DNA of 64,000 nt from Desulfobacteraceae bacterium Eth-SRB1 (lineage in GTDB: Bacteria > Desulfobacterota > Desulfobacteria > Desulfobacterales > ETH-SRB1), in assembly GCA_004193555.1 (NCBI GenBank), contig RPGP01000001.1, forward strand, positions 192,114 through 256,113. The letters run 5' to 3'. Below are positions 3,785 through 36,625 of the stretch, piece after piece. Made by a program: the position numbers and the translations under genes. The notes beneath the pieces are model-generated. The model searched no databases, was not told the origin of the DNA, and was given only the letters and a program-made list of their open reading frames with translations. Every line of letters starts with the position of its first letter. Position 1 is the first letter of the stretch.

Positions 3785-3966
3785 AAAAGATGAACGTCCA
3801 ACATCGAACAATGAACGTCCAACATCGAATAATGAAACAAAACACCCAATGAGAAACAAATGTTCAGGGATATTTGGTTGCTGTTTTTCTGACCTCCGAC
3901 CTCTGTTTCTTTGTTTTTCCCATTCGATGTTCAATGTTGGACGTTCGATGTTCGATGTTCATTGTT
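3785..3966. repeat. GAACATC-heptamer palindromic intergenic element (B-type), copy 1
   Basis: The left arm is aaaagatgaacgtccaacatcgaacaatgaacgtccaacatcgaataatg. The right arm is cattcgatgttcaatgttggacgttcgatgttcgatgttcatt. The loop includes a short CCGACCT-type run. Confidence 0.85.
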
Positions 3967-3980
3967 TCAGTTTAGCGTTT

Positions 3981-8883: not shown

Positions 8884-9047
8884 CCACGGAGCTAAAGTAA
8901 CAAAGAAAGTTATAAGTGAGCTAAAGTGCCTAAAGTGAGCTAAAGTTAAGGTATGCGCCTTTGGCGCTGCCAATTCTATATAAAAAATGGAGCAAAGCGA
9001 CTCATTAACTTTAGGCACTTTAGCTCACTTTAGGCACTCGTAACTTT
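8884..9047. repeat. CTAAAGT-type palindromic element (A-type), copy 2
   Basis: The element is near-identical to 659-798 and is the reverse complement of 13461-13640. Confidence 0.85.
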
Positions 9048-11107: not shown

Positions 11108-11130
11108 CTTATATTTCTCCTTTTAAATAG

Positions 11131-11262
11131 TGCCTAAAGCGCCTAAAATATGTTAAAGTGCCTAAAGTTAAGGTATCGCTTCGCTCTGTTTTTTATATAA
11201 AATTAGCAAAATTCCATAACTTTAGGCACTTTAGCTCACTTTAGGCACTTGTAACTTTGCTT
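11131..11262. repeat. CTAAAGT-type palindromic element (A-type), copy 3
   Basis: The arms are gtgcctaaagcgcctaaaatatgttaaagtgcctaaagttaagg and taactttaggcactttagctcactttaggcac. The core is tcgcttcgctc. Confidence 0.8.
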
Positions 11263-13460: not shown

Positions 13461-13640
13461 GTTACGAGTGCCTAAAGTGAGCTAAAGTGCCTAAAGTTAA
13501 TGAGTCGCTTTGCTCCATCTTTTATATAGAATTGGCAGCGCCAAAGGCGCATACCTTAACTTTAGCTCACTTTAGGCACTTTAGCTCACTTGTAACTTTT
13601 TTTGTTACTTTAGCTTACTTTAAATCTCTGTGTTCTCCGT
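13461..13640. repeat. CTAAAGT-type palindromic element (A-type), copy in inverse orientation
   Basis: The element is the reverse complement of the 8884-9047 element, including the outer ccacgg...gttac flank. Confidence 0.85.
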
Positions 13641-14617: not shown

Positions 14618-14656
14618 TTTTTAGTATTTAGATTTAATCCTTACAAAGTTGTTTTG

Positions 14657-14795
14657 AAAGATGAACGTCCAACATCGAACATTGAACGTCGAACATCGAA
14701 TAATGATGTCGCTCCGCTCCGCCAGTTTATAAATTAGCAGAATACCTTATTCAACATTCGATGTTGGACGTTCGATGTTCGACGTTCATCTTTTT
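14657..14795. repeat. GAACATC-heptamer palindromic element (B-type), copy 2
   Basis: Arms built of gaacgtc/caacatc/gaacatt units flank the core aataatgatgtcgctccgctccgccagtttataaatt. The right end supplies the mutase stop codon. Confidence 0.85.
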
Positions 14796-16938: not shown

Positions 16939-17080
16939 TAAAAAGATGAACGTCCAACATTGAACATCGAACATCGAACGTCGAATAATGATGTCGCTCC
17001 GCTCCGCCAGTTTATAAATTGGCAAAATACCTTATTCAACATTCGATGTTGGACGTTCGATGTTCGATGTTCATTTTTTT
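16939..17080. repeat. GAACATC-heptamer palindromic element (B-type), copy 3
   Basis: The element is about 90 percent identical by eye to 14657-14795, including the core. Confidence 0.85.
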
Positions 17081-18945: not shown

Positions 18946-19004
18946 ATTTAACAAACCTCCATGTTCACGGTTTTCCGACTTCCGACCTCCGACCTCTAAT
19001 CCCT

Positions 19005-20453: not shown

Positions 20454-20557
20454 GTTTAAATAATTTGGTTCACGGTTCAAGGTTCACGGTTCTCCAACTT
20501 CTAAACCCTGAACCCACAGTTACATAAACTTGACCATTATCTGAATAACGAAGATAT

Positions 20558-20685
20558 TAAAAGATGAACGTCCAACATCGAACATCGAATAATGAAATCG
20601 CTTCGCTCCGCCGGTTTATAAATTGGCAGAATACCTTATTCAAAATTCGACGTTGGACGTTCGATGTTCGATGTTTATTTTTTTC
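20558..20685. repeat. GAACATC-heptamer palindromic element (B-type), copy 4
   Basis: The core is aataatgaaatcgcttcgctccgccggtttataaatt. The element is followed by the shared module cagcgctactgctggg...gctacgatcc, also present at 22441-22490. Confidence 0.85.
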
Positions 20686-22682: not shown

Positions 22683-22960
22683 TTAATTCCTCTTTTTTAT
22701 CACGAAAACACGAAAGTACGAAAACACGAAGAAAAGCATAAAAAAGTATGATGAACCCGTAAAAAGTCATTCCAGAACCGCATCAAGCCCCACCCCTTCC
22801 CTTTCCTCTTCGTGGCCTTCGTGTTCTTCGTGGTACAACACACTCTGTGGTAAAAAATCGACTTTATACGAAACCGTCAAAATTTTATTTTATAAACTTA
22901 TGCACCCTGTTTTGTCAAAACAAAATGGCTTGACTATGCGCCGCATTAAGATATAAATTG

Positions 22961-23040
22961 TTCAGGAGTTCAGGAGTTCAGGAGTTCAGGAGTTCAGGAG
23001 TTCAGGAGTTCAGGGGTTCAGGGGTTCAGGGGTTCAGGGG
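22961..23040. repeat. 10-unit octamer tandem array (6 x TTCAGGAG then 4 x TTCAGGGG)
   Basis: A direct count gives 80 nt with period 8. Confidence 0.9.
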
Positions 23041-23264: not shown

Positions 23265-24695
23265 ATGGAATTTGAATCTGTTATAGGGCTTGAAATACAT
23301 GCCCAGCTAAAGACAAAAACAAAAATCTTCTGCGGCTGTTCAACAAAATTCGGAGCCCCTCCCAATACCCATACCTGTCCGGTATGTCTTGGCATGCCCG
23401 GGGTGCTCCCTGTGCTCAACAAAAAGGTTGTTGAATACAGTTTGCGCATGGCGCTTGCCACAAATTGCAAAATCAACAGGCAAAGCAGATTTGCCAGGAA
23501 AAACTACTTTTATCCTGACCTTCCAAAAGGGTACCAGATCTCCCAGTATGAACTGCCGATTGCGGAAAACGGGCATGTCGATATTGAAATCAACAGCCAT
23601 AAAAAAAGGATCGGAATCACAAGAATTCACATGGAAGAGGATGCAGGCAAACTGACTCACAATCCTGACAGGCCGCTTAGTATGGTCGATTTCAACAGGA
23701 CAGGGGTTCCTCTTATTGAGATAGTCAGCGAGCCGGATCTAAGATCCCCTGAAGAAGCCGGGGCATACTTAAGGCAGCTCAGGTCGATTGTTCGTTATCT
23801 CAGTATATGCGACGGCAACATGGAGGAGGGAAGCTTCAGGTGCGATGCAAACGTATCGATCAGGCCGATTGGCTCTGAAACTTTCGGCACGCGCGCAGAG
23901 CTTAAAAATTTAAATTCCTTTAAACATGTTGAAAAGGCGCTGCAATACGAAATAACAAGGCAAAAAGAAATTTTATCTGACGGCGGTGAGGTAATCCAGG
24001 AAACAAGGCTATGGAGCCCTGATAAAAACAGGACGACTTCAATGCGATCAAAGGAGGAGGCGCACGATTACAGGTATTTTCCAGACCCTGATCTTTTGCC
24101 TCTTGTAATTGACGATACATGGATTAATAATGTAAAAAAAAGCCTGCCCGAACTGCCGGATGAAAGAAAAATCCGTTTTATAAACAAATTTTTCCTTTCT
24201 TCAAACGACGCCGAAGCATTGACATCCAGCCGGGAGCTTGCAGAATATTTTGAGGAATGTGTAAAACAATTTCCGAATCCAAAACAGGTTTGCAACTGGG
24301 TCATGGGGGAGCTGCTCGGACTATTGAATGCAGAAGAAAAAACCATAAATGAATCCCCGGTTTCAACCGGCGATCTTGCCGGGCTGCTCAAATTAATCGA
24401 CAAAGGGGTCATAAGCGGCAAAATCGCAAAAACGGTATTTGAAGAAATGGCAAAAACAGGCCGTGCCCCTGAAAAGATTGTAAAGGAAAAACAGCTTGTA
24501 CAGGTCACGGACGTATCTGCCATTGAAGAGGTGGTATCAAAGATACTTTCAAACAACCCCAAAGAGGTGGAGGCTTACAAAAACGGCAAAACCAAACTTA
24601 TGGGTTTCTTCGTCGGCCAGGTTATGAAAGAAACAAGGGGCAAGGCCAATCCGAAGATCGTGAATGAAGTCCTGAAAAAGAGGCTGATAAATTAA
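23265..24695 (+). CDS. gatB: Asp-tRNA(Asn)/Glu-tRNA(Gln) amidotransferase subunit B
   Basis: The N-terminus is [15 protein letters not shown] and the [10 protein letters not shown] motif is present. The ORF is full length at 476 aa. Confidence 0.95.
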
Positions 24696-25222
24696 GTGCC
24701 TAAAATGCCTAAAGTATGTTAAAGTGCCTAAAGTTGTGGTACGCCTTCGGCGTGCTAATTTTAAAATTATAGGATGAAAGGTGGATAACAAAAAATTTGC
24801 TGCAGCGCTTGAAAAACGAACTCGTGAATTTGCGGTGCGGATTATTCACTTATCTTCGAAATTGCCGAATACACATGAAGGCAGAGTAATACGGAATCAG
24901 ATTACTAAATCCGGTACATCTATAGGCGCTAATTATCGTGAGGCAAATCATTCCAGAAGCAAAGCAGATTTTAAAAATAAAATCAAGATTTCTGAAAGTG
25001 AAGCAAGCGAAACTCAATATTGGATTGAAGTTGTTGTAGAGGCAAAAATGTTGCCATGGAAACAGGTAAAAGCAGAACACAAAGAATGTGGCGAACTATT
25101 GGCCATCTTTACTTCGATTTCTGCAAAACTTTAACTCATTTACAACTTATAACTTTAAAATAGACAGAATACATTAACTTTAGGCATTTTAGGCACTTTA
25201 ATATACTTTAGGCACTTTAGTT
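24696..25222. mobile_element. A-type hairpin element carrying a four-helix-bundle gene in its loop
   Basis: The element starts on the base after the gatB stop. The left arm is 24696-24745 and the right arm is 25176-25222; they are complementary over ~30 bp in best register. ORF 24781-25134 lies inside. Confidence 0.7.
24781..25134 (+). CDS. four helix bundle protein (23S rRNA intervening sequence protein family)
   Basis: The 117-aa ORF has a GTG start and motifs QITKSGTSIGANYREA, DFKNKIKISESEASET and YW. Confidence 0.85.
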   Translation: MDNKKFAAALEKRTREFAVRIIHLSSKLPNTHEGRVIRNQITKSGTSIGANYREANHSRSKADFKNKIKISESEASETQYWIEVVVEAKMLPWKQVKAEHKECGELLAIFTSISAKL

Positions 25223-29325: not shown

Positions 29326-29760
29326 ATGAGCAGAGTTCAAACCGTGCAAAAAAGCTTGAGAATACCGAGGGAAACTTTTGATGATATTGAAAAAATTGCC
29401 GGCGAGACCGGACGTGAATTTTCAGCCATAGCCAAGGATCTCCTTGCAGAAGCCGTAAAAATGCGCCGATGTCCAGGCATTGTGTTCGTAGATGGTGTGA
29501 GAGGAAGAAAAGCCAAAATAGCAGGAACCGGGCTTGATGTCTGGGAAATCATTGCAACATATAAAAGCATTAATAATAAGTTCCCTCGCCTTCGCAAAGC
29601 ATATCACTGGCTTTCCGATCAGCAATTAAAAGCTGCAATCGGCTATTATACCGCTTATCGCGATGAGATTGATTATCTGATTAAACAAAATGAATCATGG
29701 AACAGCAAAACCGTTATTGATCGTTACCCTTTCCTTGATAAGGAGACTGTCCGAGAATGA
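29326..29760 (+). CDS. DUF433 domain protein with N-terminal ribbon-helix-helix-like region (putative antitoxin)
   Basis: The CopG-like N-terminus is SLRIPRETFDDIEKIA. The DUF433 core is PGIVFVDGVRGRKAKIAGTGLDVWEI. Confidence 0.7.
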   Translation: MSRVQTVQKSLRIPRETFDDIEKIAGETGREFSAIAKDLLAEAVKMRRCPGIVFVDGVRGRKAKIAGTGLDVWEIIATYKSINNKFPRLRKAYHWLSDQQLKAAIGYYTAYRDEIDYLIKQNESWNSKTVIDRYPFLDKETVRE

Positions 29761-29895: not shown

Positions 29896-30243
29896 ATGAA
29901 ATATTACATAGATGAAGATCTAAGCCCAAAGATAGCTGAAATACTGCGAAAACAGAATGTCGACTGTATCAGTGTGCATGAAGTCAGTATGGTTCAGGCA
30001 TCTGATTTGGAGCAGCTAATGATGGCTGCCAAAAAAAAGCGATGTTTTGTCACAAAAAACAGAGATGATTTTATTCGTTTGACTGTACAGTTTTTTAATG
30101 ACCACATATCTCATTATGGCGTGCTGATTATTCCTTATACAATTCCCGGGGATCAATTTGCCCGTATCGCTGACAAACTTGTGAACTATGCTCTTAAACA
30201 CCCCGACGGAATGATGCCTTATACTGTTGATTTTTTGTCTTAA
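29896..30243 (+). CDS. DUF5615 (PIN-like) family putative toxin
   Basis: The N-terminus is MKYYIDEDLSPKIAEILR and the ORF is 115 aa. It has the usual partnership with a DUF433 gene. Confidence 0.7.
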   Translation: MKYYIDEDLSPKIAEILRKQNVDCISVHEVSMVQASDLEQLMMAAKKKRCFVTKNRDDFIRLTVQFFNDHISHYGVLIIPYTIPGDQFARIADKLVNYALKHPDGMMPYTVDFLS

Positions 30244-30271
30244 TCCAGTAATTACAATTTGATTTTCTTTT

Positions 30272-30351
30272 TTCGTGTTTTCGTGTTTTCGTGTTTTCGT
30301 GTTTTCGTGTTTTCGTGTTTTCGTGTTTTCGTACTTTCGTGCTTTCGTGAT
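30272..30351. repeat. 10-unit octamer tandem array (7 x TTCGTGTT + 3 variants)
   Basis: A direct count gives period 8. The array lies between the convergent DUF5615 and mutL genes. Confidence 0.9.
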
Positions 30352-30452
30352 TAAAACTGCTTTTCTCTGTGTACTCTGTGATCTCTGTGGTAAATACTTT
30401 TCTTCTTCGTGCTTCGTGGTAAATATTTTCTGTCATAGAAACACTTTAGCTA

Positions 30453-32330
30453 CTAAACTACTCTCCCAAACAATTTCTCAATTTCTCCTTTGCTCCACCT
30501 TATCCATGTAGGCCGGCCATGCGGACAGTGGGAAGAATTTTTGCATTTATCAAGCTGGTCGAGAAGACCTTTCATCTCTTTATCGGAAAGCGGATGGTTT
30601 GCCCTGATTGCCCCGTGGCAGGCCATGAGTATCAGGCATTTATCAATGGCTTTTTCAATGCCGGGCCCGAAACCTGTTTCTGCAATTTTTTCCGTAATCT
30701 CGATAACGAGCGGCCTGATCTCCCTGCCGGCAAGAACCGCCGGCACAGACTTTACCACAAAGGTATCTGATCCAAAGGGCTCTATTTCAAGACCGGTCTC
30801 CTTTAAATCAGGGATCAGCTTTTCAAGTATGCCTGCCTCTTTATAGCCCAGGTCAACTGTTTCAGGAACAAGCAGTCTCTGGGATTCTGTTTTCCCTGCC
30901 ATGGATCTGTTTTTCAGATGCTCATAAACAATTCTCTCATGTGCTGCATGCTGATCAATAATCAGAAGCTCCTTGTCCGACTCGCAGAGTATATATGTGT
31001 CATGAAACTGGCCGATTACCCGCAAATCGCCAACACCTTTTTTATCCCAGATTTGCGCCTGTTCGGAGGCTGGAGGTCGGAGGTCAGAGGCCAGAGGTCG
31101 GATGCCAGAGGTCGGAGATCGGAGATCGGAGGTCAGGGGTCGGCGGTCGGCGGTCGGCGGTCGGAAGTCGGAGATCAGAGGTCGGAGGTCAGAGGTCAGG
31201 GGTCGGAGGCCAGAGGTCGGAGGTCGGAAGTCGGAAGTCGGATCGGAAAAGGGTGTTGGAAAGCCGCTGTAACGGGAAGCAGGCTCGGAAACGGAAAGCC
31301 TGTCCTGCACGGACAATGGACCGGCGCTCCATCCTGCCCTTTCAGCGATTTCCAGTCCCCTTTTTACAGCTTGTTTTACAGCATAATGAACCATGTTCTG
31401 CTGCGCAAACCTGACTTCCTGCTTTGCCGGATGAACATTTACATCCACGCTGTCAAATGGCAGGTCAATAAAAAGAACCGCCACGGGGAACCGCCCTTTC
31501 ATCAATCTTTGTTCATATCCTTCAAACAGGGCATGCGAAATAATCCTGTCCCGCACAAACCTTCCGTTTACATACACATAGATTCCCCGGGATGTAGTCC
31601 GGTCAACTCCGGGAGATGATATCCAGCCGGCCACAGAAATATTATCGTCATCAAATTTTATCCTGTGCAACCCCCTTTTTAAACCGCTGCCGAGGACATC
31701 CACGACCCTGTCAAAAGGATCTGTTGCAACAGGCCGGCCTTTGACAAGCCTTCCGTTGTGATTCAGCAAAAATTTCACATCAGGCCTGCCCAGACCGATG
31801 CTCGAAATAATATCTGCGATATGCCCGAACTCTGTATTGACGCTCTTTAAAAACTTTCGTCTTGCAGGCACATTAAAGAAAAGCTGCTTTACTGTAACCA
31901 TGCTGCCTGTGGGCGCGCCGATTTGAGAAACCTTTTTAATCTTTCCTCCATGGATTAGTATCTCGGCGCCTGCATCAGAGGCCTTATCCCTCGTAACAAG
32001 GGAAAATTTTGATACCGAAGCAATGCTCGGCAGCGCCTCGCCCCTGAAGCCGAGACTCTTTATGGAAAACAGATCGTCGTTTTTGTAAATCTTACTGGTC
32101 GCATACCTCTCCAGGGAAAGAAGCGCATCGTCTTTGTTCATGCCGCAGCCGTTGTCTGAAACACGAATTAATGACCTGCCGCCGTTTTCAATCTCGATTG
32201 CTATCCGGCTGCTGCCCGCATCCAGCGCATTTTCGACAAGCTCCTTTACAACAGAAGCCGGCCTCTCCACGACTTCGCCCGCAGCTATCCTGTTTGAAAG
32301 GTTTTCGGGAAGTATTCTTATTTTCGACAT
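30453..32330 (-). CDS. mutL: DNA mismatch repair endonuclease MutL
   Basis: The N-terminal GHKL ATPase (IAAGEVVERPASVVKELVENALDAG) and the C-terminal endonuclease motif DQHAAHERIVYE are present. The linker carries a 7-aa periodic insert. Confidence 0.9.
   Translation of the reverse strand: MSKIRILPENLSNRIAAGEVVERPASVVKELVENALDAGSSRIAIEIENGGRSLIRVSDNGCGMNKDDALLSLERYATSKIYKNDDLFSIKSLGFRGEALPSIASVSKFSLVTRDKASDAGAEILIHGGKIKKVSQIGAPTGSMVTVKQLFFNVPARRKFLKSVNTEFGHIADIISSIGLGRPDVKFLLNHNGRLVKGRPVATDPFDRVVDVLGSGLKRGLHRIKFDDDNISVAGWISSPGVDRTTSRGIYVYVNGRFVRDRIISHALFEGYEQRLMKGRFPVAVLFIDLPFDSVDVNVHPAKQEVRFAQQNMVHYAVKQAVKRGLEIAERAGWSAGPLSVQDRLSVSEPASRYSGFPTPFSDPTSDFRPPTSGLRPLTSDLRPLISDFRPPTADRRPLTSDLRSPTSGIRPLASDLRPPASEQAQIWDKKGVGDLRVIGQFHDTYILCESDKELLIIDQHAAHERIVYEHLKNRSMAGKTESQRLLVPETVDLGYKEAGILEKLIPDLKETGLEIEPFGSDTFVVKSVPAVLAGREIRPLVIEITEKIAETGFGPGIEKAIDKCLILMACHGAIRANHPLSDKEMKGLLDQLDKCKNSSHCPHGRPTWIRWSKGEIEKLFGRVV
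31064..31245. repeat. ~26 tandem heptamers (plus strand YRGAGGT; coding strand ACCTCYG) inside the mutL linker
   Basis: A direct count was made. The array is translated as eight SDLRPPT-like 7-aa units. The same unit type occurs intergenically at 3889-3905 and 18975-19000. Confidence 0.9.
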
Positions 32331-36363: not shown

Positions 36364-36410
36364 GGTCAAACTCCTTCATATTGATGAACTTAGCGCCCTT
36401 TAAGCGGGCT

Positions 36411-36547
36411 TAAAAGATGAACGTCGAACATCGAACGTTCAACATCGAATTTTGAATAAGGAATTCTACCAATTTATAAACTGGCGGAGCGAAGCGATTT
36501 CATCATTCGATGTTCAATGTTCGACGTTCGATATTCGATGTTCAAAA
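36411..36547. repeat. GAACATC-heptamer palindromic element (B-type) with core in inverse orientation
   Basis: The core aatttataaactggcggagcgaagcgatttc is the reverse complement of the B2/B3 core. Confidence 0.8.
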
Positions 36548-36625
36548 GAATTTTCACTCTACCGCTCCCACTTGGCAACCTATTGATAAAATTAATCATA
36601 AAATGGAAATTTCTATACTATCAAG

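Follow-up and report, generated by a model that had tools for sequence, protein, structure and literature searches.

The mutL gene of Desulfobacteraceae bacterium Eth-SRB1 carries, in the part encoding the linker between the two halves of the protein, a translated heptanucleotide microsatellite whose length differs between near-identical relatives, and in which the gain or loss of one or two units is predicted to knock the gene out. The gene lies in a 64,000-nt stretch of GenBank assembly GCA_004193555.1 (contig RPGP01000001.1, positions 192,114 to 256,113; hereafter the window), in which a first-pass annotation, made from the sequence alone, had already noticed the array and proposed it as a mutator switch. 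We regard it instead as a tolerated, frame-policed microsatellite, young and fast-changing, in an unconstrained MutL linker, which amounts to a latent, potentially reversible knockout site for mutL without evidence of a high-frequency programmed switch. We assign this reading a probability of about 0.68.

The protein encoded by the window mutL (Table 1) is 100% identical to the NCBI protein annotated as "MutL [Desulfobacteraceae bacterium Eth-SRB1]", encoded on a 1.25-Mb contig; a separate exact-protein lookup gave no entry. Pfam detected three domains in it: HATPase_c_3 (residues 25-116, E = 1e-9), DNA_mis_repair (residues 211-326, E = 3e-35) and MutL_C (residues 439-581, E = 2.6e-41). Solved MutL structures cover just two stretches, residues 4-324 and residues 438-624, the second being matched by the C-terminal structures of B. 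subtilis and N. gonorrhoeae MutL. The C-terminal domain contains the endonuclease motif DQHAAHERIVYE (of the DQHA(X)2E(X)4E type) at residues 459-470 (window 30921-30956), and CPHGRPT, a CPHGRP motif, at residues 602-608 (window 30507-30527). With both the domain and the motifs present, the protein belongs, as judged from its sequence, to the MutH-independent endonuclease type. Pfam and the coverage by solved structures agree in placing the array between the ATPase and the endonuclease domains, as the first-pass annotation had it. An AlphaFold model of the protein was poor (mean predicted local distance difference test score 38.9, from a 13-sequence alignment) and was used only to note that residues 361-420 have the lowest confidence and no secondary structure, which weakly agrees with a linker.

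Tandem Repeats Finder (TRF) reported the array with period 7, 25.7 copies, 79% matches, 0% indels and a score of 185, the top score in the window. The coding strand shows 25 full heptamers (31066-31240) and, after them, the partial unit CGAACAG. The commoner unit types are CGACCTC (six units), TGACCTC (four), CGACTTC and CGACCGC (three each); TGGCCTC, CGACCCC and CGATCTC are present twice each, and TGATCTC, TGGCATC and CAGCCTC once each. The array is thus real, of period 7, uninterrupted and in frame, although the approximately 26 units counted earlier become 25 full ones. Because 7 and 3 share no factor, the heptamers are read in all three phases, and their translation consists of about 8.6 seven-residue units (DPTSDFRPPTSGLRPLTSDLRPLI...), which confirms the peptide periodicity described before; this peptide is proline-rich, with 12 Pro in 60 residues. 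A 14-nt two-unit pattern, searched with up to two mismatches, matched the window 22 times, against 0.14 matches expected from dinucleotide-preserving shuffles. Nineteen of the 22 matches lie in the mutL array and the other three at 3890-3903 and 18976-18996, so that the CGACCTC family occupies three loci within 64 kb, including the two intergenic sites at which the first-pass annotation had seen the same type of unit.

The longest perfect tandem tract in the array comprises only three CGACCGC units (units 12-14), a variant confined to this position, and exact direct repeats reach at most 20 nt (at offset 7). Positional identity declines only slightly, from 0.80 (lag 7) through 0.78 (lag 14) to 0.77 (lag 21), and stays at 0.72-0.77 up to lag 63; given these flat values, a 21-nt, in-frame superperiod was rejected as the growth mode of the window array. 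Identical units are adjacent six times, against 2.4 expected from unit shuffling (P = 0.02), and show no enrichment at lag 3 (1 vs 2.2 expected). The arrays of two relatives introduced below, L060 and L061, contain the duplicated blocks (CGACTTC CGACCTC)x2 and (CGACCTC CGATCTC)x2. The adjacent identical units and these blocks look like footprints of one-unit and two-unit duplications, each of which would by itself be a frameshift. Hairpin-assisted slippage was also considered and rejected, since the array strand folds worse than shuffled sequences (-3.2 vs -10.0 kcal/mol, z = +3.0).

The consequences of unit gain and loss for the reading frame were simulated in silico. Gain or loss of one or two units gave products of 396, 410, 417 and 403 aa, all of which end inside the array and lack the whole MutL_C domain; three-unit changes gave full-length proteins of 618 or 632 aa. 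In these simulations, alleles shifted by one or two units are therefore mutL nulls terminated inside the array, and the earlier prediction that such changes would truncate MutL before its endonuclease domain holds. The stops are supplied, in the shifted frames, by the TGACCTC and TGATCTC variants, and none falls in the coding frame. The five latent TGA codons have their first bases at 31198, 31177 and 31135 in one frame, and at 31191 and 31086 in the other. None of the eight T-initial units (TGA or TGG) is in the register that would read its first three bases as a codon (hypergeometric P = 0.022, by hand arithmetic on the unit analysis), as would be expected if selection had kept the frame open.

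Among relatives, all length variation of MutL is confined to the linker: the nine close homologues (P0002-P0010) have 575-591 aa, and the window MutL 625 aa. The contigs of the relatives were retrieved protein by protein; a scan of metagenome contigs gave one close relative, L001, and a scan of genome contigs likewise one, L069, which is the L062 contig. When a unit was counted wherever at least 5 of 7 bases match CGACCTC, the window linker had 24 units, L061 had 10, L063 had 7, L060 had 5, L062, L064 and L065 had 4 each, L066 and L067 had 1 each, and L068 had 0. In L066, L067, L068 and L001, a different, non-repeat linker segment stands in place of the array, the L001 linker being the same as that of L066. 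In L062 and L064, a 24-nt non-repeat segment, GCCAGACTGACGGCGGGCAAGCTC (RQTDGGQA), lies between two and three heptamer units; this segment may be a remnant of the ancestral linker of L066-L068, with units arising on either side of it.

The N-terminal-domain DNA of the window mutL and that of L060, a contig from SRR28272307, are 98.7% identical (98.3% at third codon positions). Yet the segment between the identical anchors TTTTCCGATC and CGAACAGGCGCAAATC measures 175 nt in the window and 49 nt in L060, corresponding to 25 vs 7 in-register heptads; the excess of exactly 18 units equals 6 x 21 nt and may reflect either an expansion in the window or a contraction in L060. By this sequence comparison, array length changes at roughly the within-species level, and a length difference at such near-identity means that the array is no ancient frozen relic. 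The octanucleotide array downstream of mutL was unusable as a comparator for this pair, as the downstream regions are not orthologous. The first-pass annotation had said that it would give up its proposal if the array proved invariant in length, or ancient and diverged at the DNA level among orthologues. Neither is the case: lengths differ as described, with 0-10 units in the other relatives, and the array is young, without conservation among orthologues.

We found no out-of-frame (OFF) allele among close relatives: the ten proteins that share 86% identity or more with the N-terminal domain all have full length. The N-terminal domain alone was used as the query, so that truncated MutLs would be listed, and the same ten proteins were returned. 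Among distant relatives (64-72% identity) there are three truncated MutLs (P0134, P0161 and P0164), on contigs of 200-308 kb, which at first resembled natural OFF alleles beside heptamer arrays. DNA was retrieved for two of the three, the loci L116 (10001-11927) and L117 (10001-11943) on ENA contigs of 250-300 kb, and in both mutL is split into an N-terminal ORF (open reading frame) and an overlapping ORF with MutL_C. L116 has an array of CCGCAAC x11.4 with a 21-nt superperiod, and its shift is one extra C at ~11207, ~25 nt upstream of the array, as located by flank homology (...GDKH/HGI...); deleting this C restores a 641-aa ORF, 86.5% identical to P0127. The shift in L117 maps to a C5 run at ~11317, where adding one C gives a 647-aa ORF. 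Both were rejected as OFF alleles produced by unit slippage, the changes being best explained by 1-nt indels outside the array or in the C5 run; for L116 the exclusion is by parsimony and no proof, since losing one unit or gaining two would bring the frame back as well. The two contigs are named "contig_N" and in this look like long-read assemblies, whose typical error is the single-base indel; the split genes may be artefacts of this kind, or else genuine pseudogenes or mutators. A split IS110 transposase is also present in L117.

Heptamer-derived repeats recur in the MutL linkers of the clade. As a test set we used the 11,260 seven-residue peptides that a pure, stop-free heptamer array can encode, and counted exact matches among seven-residue peptide windows. 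In the linkers of 168 MutL clusters (90% identity), 208 of 20,390 peptide windows matched, in 57 of the 168 proteins; the same proteins gave 1 match in 77,155 outside the linker, and shuffled linkers 11 in 407,800. A SPOR/FtsN-like family, encoded ~3 kb from mutL in relatives and likewise having a variable low-complexity linker (243 aa in 65 of 120 homologues), served as the control and gave 2 matches in 28,694 peptide windows, in 2 of 120 proteins. No heptamer-encodable peptide was present in any of 54 mutL genes of other phyla, and 50%-identity MutL representatives (40-57% identical to the query, with three at 64-65%) gave 3 matches in 91,006, in 1 of 150 proteins. Judged by these counts, heptamer-derived repeats are a specific and recurrent property of this clade's MutL linker, and neither of every low-complexity linker nor of MutLs at large, the specificity being relative to one control family and not to a genome-wide census.

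At least 20 different heptamer units are implied among the clade's MutL linkers, many of them at most two substitutions from CC[AC]G[CT]A[ACT] (PASSIQH = CCAGCAT, PATSNQQ = CCAGCAA, PATRNPQ = CCCGCAA). DNA sequences confirm the arrays in L116 (CCGCAAC) and L117 (AGGCGGA), and the segments mostly lie within the last 0-40 residues before the C-terminal domain. Some linkers, those of P0101, P0165 and P0167, have two or three different heptamer-derived repeats, and P0101 carries the window unit reversed (SEVRGQR from GGTCAGA). Several or reversed repeats per linker argue that such arrays arose independently more than once. Much of the pattern can be accounted for by a single long-lived array, inherited from a common ancestor and renewed by unit turnover, because the 168 clusters amount to few 50%-identity clusters.

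The genomic surroundings are rich in arrays of this kind. The window contains 77 merged TRF arrays, and apart from the one in mutL, those of at least three copies are intergenic or touch ORF ends. Arrays with a score of at least 40 have a density of 6.8 per 10 kb at clade loci vs 1.7 in other taxa, and their periods are mostly 7-9 and 14 in the clade and mostly 12 and 15 elsewhere.

In the reading we favour, the CGACCTC array would be one of the 7-9-nt repeat families filling the non-coding DNA of this genome, grown inside the MutL linker and read there in three phases as a seven-residue spacer rich in Pro, Ser, Arg, Leu, Thr and Asp. Replication slippage or unequal exchange would add or remove one or several units at a time. 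A step of one or two units would, as simulated, give a mutL null ended inside the array, and purifying selection on MutL would keep only net changes of 3n units, all alleles seen being in frame. That linkers of this clade tolerate such repeats is suggested by the 57 of 168 proteins with heptamer-encodable peptides and the variety of their units. Several points weigh against this reading. Tolerance alone gives no obvious account of the contrast between MutL linkers and the SPOR family (208/20,390 vs 2/28,694), and the linker specificity leaves room for selection or for a mutL-specific ratchet. The one- and two-unit footprints imply past out-of-frame, and hence mutator, states or coupled compensating events, which is nearer to a switch than to pure neutrality. 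Finally, the alleles examined are a small sample and come only from consensus assemblies, and because these hide minority alleles the absence of OFF alleles is weak evidence.

The array could instead be an adaptive contingency locus, kept because slippage toggles MutL on and off at a useful frequency; the reversible mutator subpopulations so created would be carried along with adaptive mutations before reverting. A unit length that is no multiple of 3, the truncation that follows one- or two-unit changes, the 18-unit difference at 98.7% nucleotide identity and the single- and double-unit footprints are all as this explanation would have them, and so is the persistence of heptamer arrays in the clade's MutL linkers, given that all 54 mutL genes of other taxa and all but one of 150 distant MutLs lack them and that only 2 of 120 proteins of the neighbour family have them. 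There is also a precedent in the 6-bp repeat switch of Salmonella mutL (PMC2955026). However, 0 of 10 close alleles are out of frame, and the split genes of L116 and L117 reflect 1-nt indels on contigs named like long-read assemblies. Moreover, the tract is 79% pure, with at most three perfect units and no hairpin potential, some related arrays have a 21-nt superperiod, as in L116, that indicates in-frame growth, and rare events suffice for the divergence seen. We therefore consider such a locus unlikely. Of the reversible mutator switch put forward at first pass, the latent frameshift knockout and the length polymorphism stand; the switching itself sits poorly with ten in-frame alleles out of ten and an impure tract.

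A related possibility is that the linker microsatellite of the clade, which belongs to the Desulfobacterales and includes syntrophic sulfate reducers of seeps, is long-lived and constantly renewed, being retained for mutL-null mutator episodes that end by compensating slippage back; we think this distinctly unlikely. If it were true, the arrays would grow and turn over as a by-product of OFF-then-ON cycles, and these free-living, uncultured bacteria would possess a contingency locus of the frameshift type within a core repair gene.

The first-pass annotation further supposed that a mutL-off state would destabilise all repeat arrays of the genome. E. coli MutS leaves loops larger than ~4 nt unrepaired, and the tetranucleotide tracts of H. 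influenzae are insensitive to mutS and mutL. The supposed effect is thus doubtful, as loops of 7-9 nt are beyond MutS/MutL repair where tested; in S. pombe, heptanucleotide repeats are unaffected in msh2, msh6 and mlh1 mutants (PMC5427490). It is possible that loss of mutL acts on the arrays by way of relaxed homeologous recombination.

Selection could also act on the protein, with (SDLRPPT)n maintained as a spacer of tuned length, or as a proline-rich interaction motif that alters the cooperation of the N- and C-terminal domains. The length of the MutL linker is known to affect function from E. coli and yeast linker studies, and the repeat is always in frame, proline-rich and, across the clade, placed in the last ~0-40 residues before the C-terminal domain. 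This explanation is nevertheless quite improbable, since close relatives have between 0 and 25 units in proteins otherwise 85-97% identical, and the peptides of different subclades are wholly different (PASSIQH, PATRNAQ, DFGFRIS, SEVRGQR and others), with the DNA unit reversed in P0101; what is conserved is therefore the DNA periodicity and not the peptide. That the array or its length is a mis-assembly is very improbable even for a metagenome-assembled genome (MAG), with tandem repeats being classic sites of such errors, because a longest exact self-repeat of 20 nt lets typical k-mers and reads resolve the array uniquely, an unbroken ORF runs through it, its flanks align collinearly with those of orthologues, and arrays of the same unit are found at the same place of mutL in six independent assemblies from different pipelines.

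Table 1. Features of the window discussed in the text, with window coordinates.
Feature	Position	Strand	Description	Basis
mutL coding sequence	30453..32330	-	625 aa + stop, intact	ORF list, Pfam, NCBI protein identity
N-terminal ATPase + transducer domain	31353..32330	-	aa 1-326	Pfam; solved MutL N-terminal fragments match query 4-324
Inter-domain linker	31017..31352	-	aa 327-438	no Pfam domain; outside solved constructs
C-terminal dimerisation + endonuclease domain	30456..31016	-	aa 439-625	Pfam MutL_C, motifs
Heptanucleotide array	31063..31242	-	consensus CGACCTC on coding strand; (SDLRPPT)-like, aa 363-423	TRF, unit parse, lag analysis
Longest perfect tandem tract	31143..31163	-	CGACCGC x3	exact-repeat analysis, pattern search
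Five latent TGA codons	31084..31198	-	two non-coding frames	three-frame translation, slippage simulation
Intergenic CGACCTC-family array	18974..18996	+	TCCGACC x3.3	TRF, pattern search
Two CGACCTC-family units	3890..3903	+	TGACCTC CGACCTC, loop of palindromic repeat element	pattern search, alignment

The intergenic CGACCTC-family array lies ~30 nt upstream of the start of a (-)-strand aminotransferase gene, identified by Pfam of the neighbouring ORF. Two octanucleotide arrays, GTTCAGGA x9.9 (98% matches, 22960-23038) and TTTTCGTG x10 (95%, 30270-30349), are far purer than the mutL array, and neither has hairpin potential; the second is ~100 nt downstream of the mutL stop codon. With 79% matches, the mutL array is comparatively degenerate beside them.

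A dispersed palindromic element of ~135 nt is present at 14655-14795, 16940-17080, 20555-20685 and, inverted, 36410-36550. The arms, built of tandem heptamers in inverted orientation, (GAACATC/GAACGTC)n and (GATGTTC)n, enclose a conserved loop of ~50 nt (..AATAATGA..TCGCTYCGCTCCGCCAGTTTATAAATTGGCAGAATACCTTATTCAA) and are followed by a T-run. Folding energies of the copies are -25 to -35 kcal/mol (z = -3.5 to -9), and the element could be of the miniature inverted-repeat transposable element (MITE) or repetitive extragenic palindromic (REP) type, or an elaborate terminator. In a variant copy at 3785-3970 the loop is different and holds two CGACCTC-family units. A second family of inverted array pairs, with 9-10-nt units, (CTAAAGTGC)n ... 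(ACTTTAGGC)n, occurs in many intergenic regions (663-790, 8914-9038, 11129-11250, 13467-13591, 24694-25220 and others).

At the 3' end of mutL, the last ~10 residues of the protein alternate among close relatives between two forms, ..GEIEKLFGRVV and ..GFLEREFKRV (window 30453-30480), and the DNA that follows (window 29970-30452 vs L060 2505-3004) is not orthologous despite the 98.7% identity of the genes; the pattern points to a recombination breakpoint at this end of the gene. Downstream are genes for a DUF433 protein (29326-29760, +) and a DUF5615/PIN-like protein (29896-30243, +), which together look like a toxin-antitoxin pair; similar DUF5615, PhdYeFM and PIN modules adjoin mutL in the relatives L065 and L068. 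Two (+)-strand ORFs opposite mutL, at 30918-31619 (233 aa) and 30995-31414 (139 aa), owe their existence solely to the lack of stop codons in all three (+) frames of the array, and do not point to genes.

The case for repeat-mediated switching of mismatch repair (MMR) has so far been made chiefly in enterobacteria, on the basis of an in-frame repeat of 6 bp. The clade with frameshift-type mutL microsatellites consists of slow-growing sulfate reducers of environmental importance, which live as partners of archaea that oxidise alkanes and methane. Were only a small proportion of their cells out of frame, mutation-rate heterogeneity would be built into the populations, with a bearing on how syntrophic consortia adapt and on the trust placed in MAG consensus sequences. 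Array length modulo 21 nt would be a countable, read-level marker for mutator-state cycling in natural populations, free of cultivation. Under the neutral reading, the array would be a natural case of a non-triplet microsatellite surviving in a gene of essential function only by continuous frame policing.

Among known systems, the Salmonella and E. coli mutL repeat GCTGGC x3 is likewise a short tandem repeat inside mutL, and work by Shaver & Sniegowski from 2003 reportedly also concerned it. Chen et al. 2010, with experiments on the Salmonella repeat, proposed mutL tandem repeats as spontaneous mutability switches, that is, as reversible modulators of the mutation rate (PMC2955026). There, slipped-strand mispairing alters the copy number and turns the gene from functional to defective and back, a conversion observed experimentally; the three perfect copies lie in the ATPase domain, and the in-frame change alters the protein without truncating it (PMC2955026). 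In the window mutL, by contrast, 25 imperfect copies of 7 bp lie in a disordered linker, their changes are predicted to cause frameshift and truncation, and the consensus assemblies compared showed no such conversion.

The contingency loci of Haemophilus, Neisseria and Campylobacter also have intragenic repeats whose unit is not a multiple of three (PMC2651432, PMC5084427, PMC4085013). The window array shares with them the non-triplet repeat within a gene, the OFF state and restoration of frame, both in silico, and the copy-number polymorphism between close strains. Classical loci, however, have long near-perfect tracts in genes for surface structures or for restriction-modification, and their ON as well as OFF alleles are seen among strains and within single strains, unlike the window array, which is 79% pure with no perfect tract longer than three units, lies in a housekeeping repair gene, and has been seen only as ON alleles.

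Heptamers are the most abundant class of long simple sequence repeats (Mrazek et al. 2007, as summarised in PMC4679880), and that paper describes mostly intergenic heptanucleotide families: the cyanobacterial STRR, TAACTGA of marine Beggiatoaceae, and others in further genomes. The window resembles these families in having a few recurring heptamer units at many loci, overwhelmingly intergenic. According to PMC4679880, intragenic copies of such families are tolerated only at the protein periphery or between domains, and none is reported in MMR genes. In the present case, by contrast, mutL has a member of such a family at its centre, and linkers with heptamer-derived repeats are found in MutLs throughout a clade. 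The E. coli tolA repeat similarly lies in a flexible linker and varies in copy number between strains while the protein stays functional (PMC3477136). Its unit is a multiple of three and its slippage never shifts the frame, whereas each single-unit step in the window mutL does.

In human MMR genes, the coding mononucleotide tracts A8 of MSH3 and C8 of MSH6 are mutated in microsatellite-unstable tumours. They too are slippage-prone repeats in a mismatch-repair gene, in which a frameshift disables repair. They are mononucleotide runs, however, whose instability is itself caused by loss of MMR, a feedback loop not expected at the window array because heptamer loops are outside the substrate range of MMR. 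In the literature searched, coverage of which was incomplete, there was no prior description of a heptamer microsatellite in a MutL linker. Beside these systems, what is new here is the combination of a translated, non-triplet, 25-unit microsatellite in the MutL linker with near-intraspecific length polymorphism and clade-wide recurrence.

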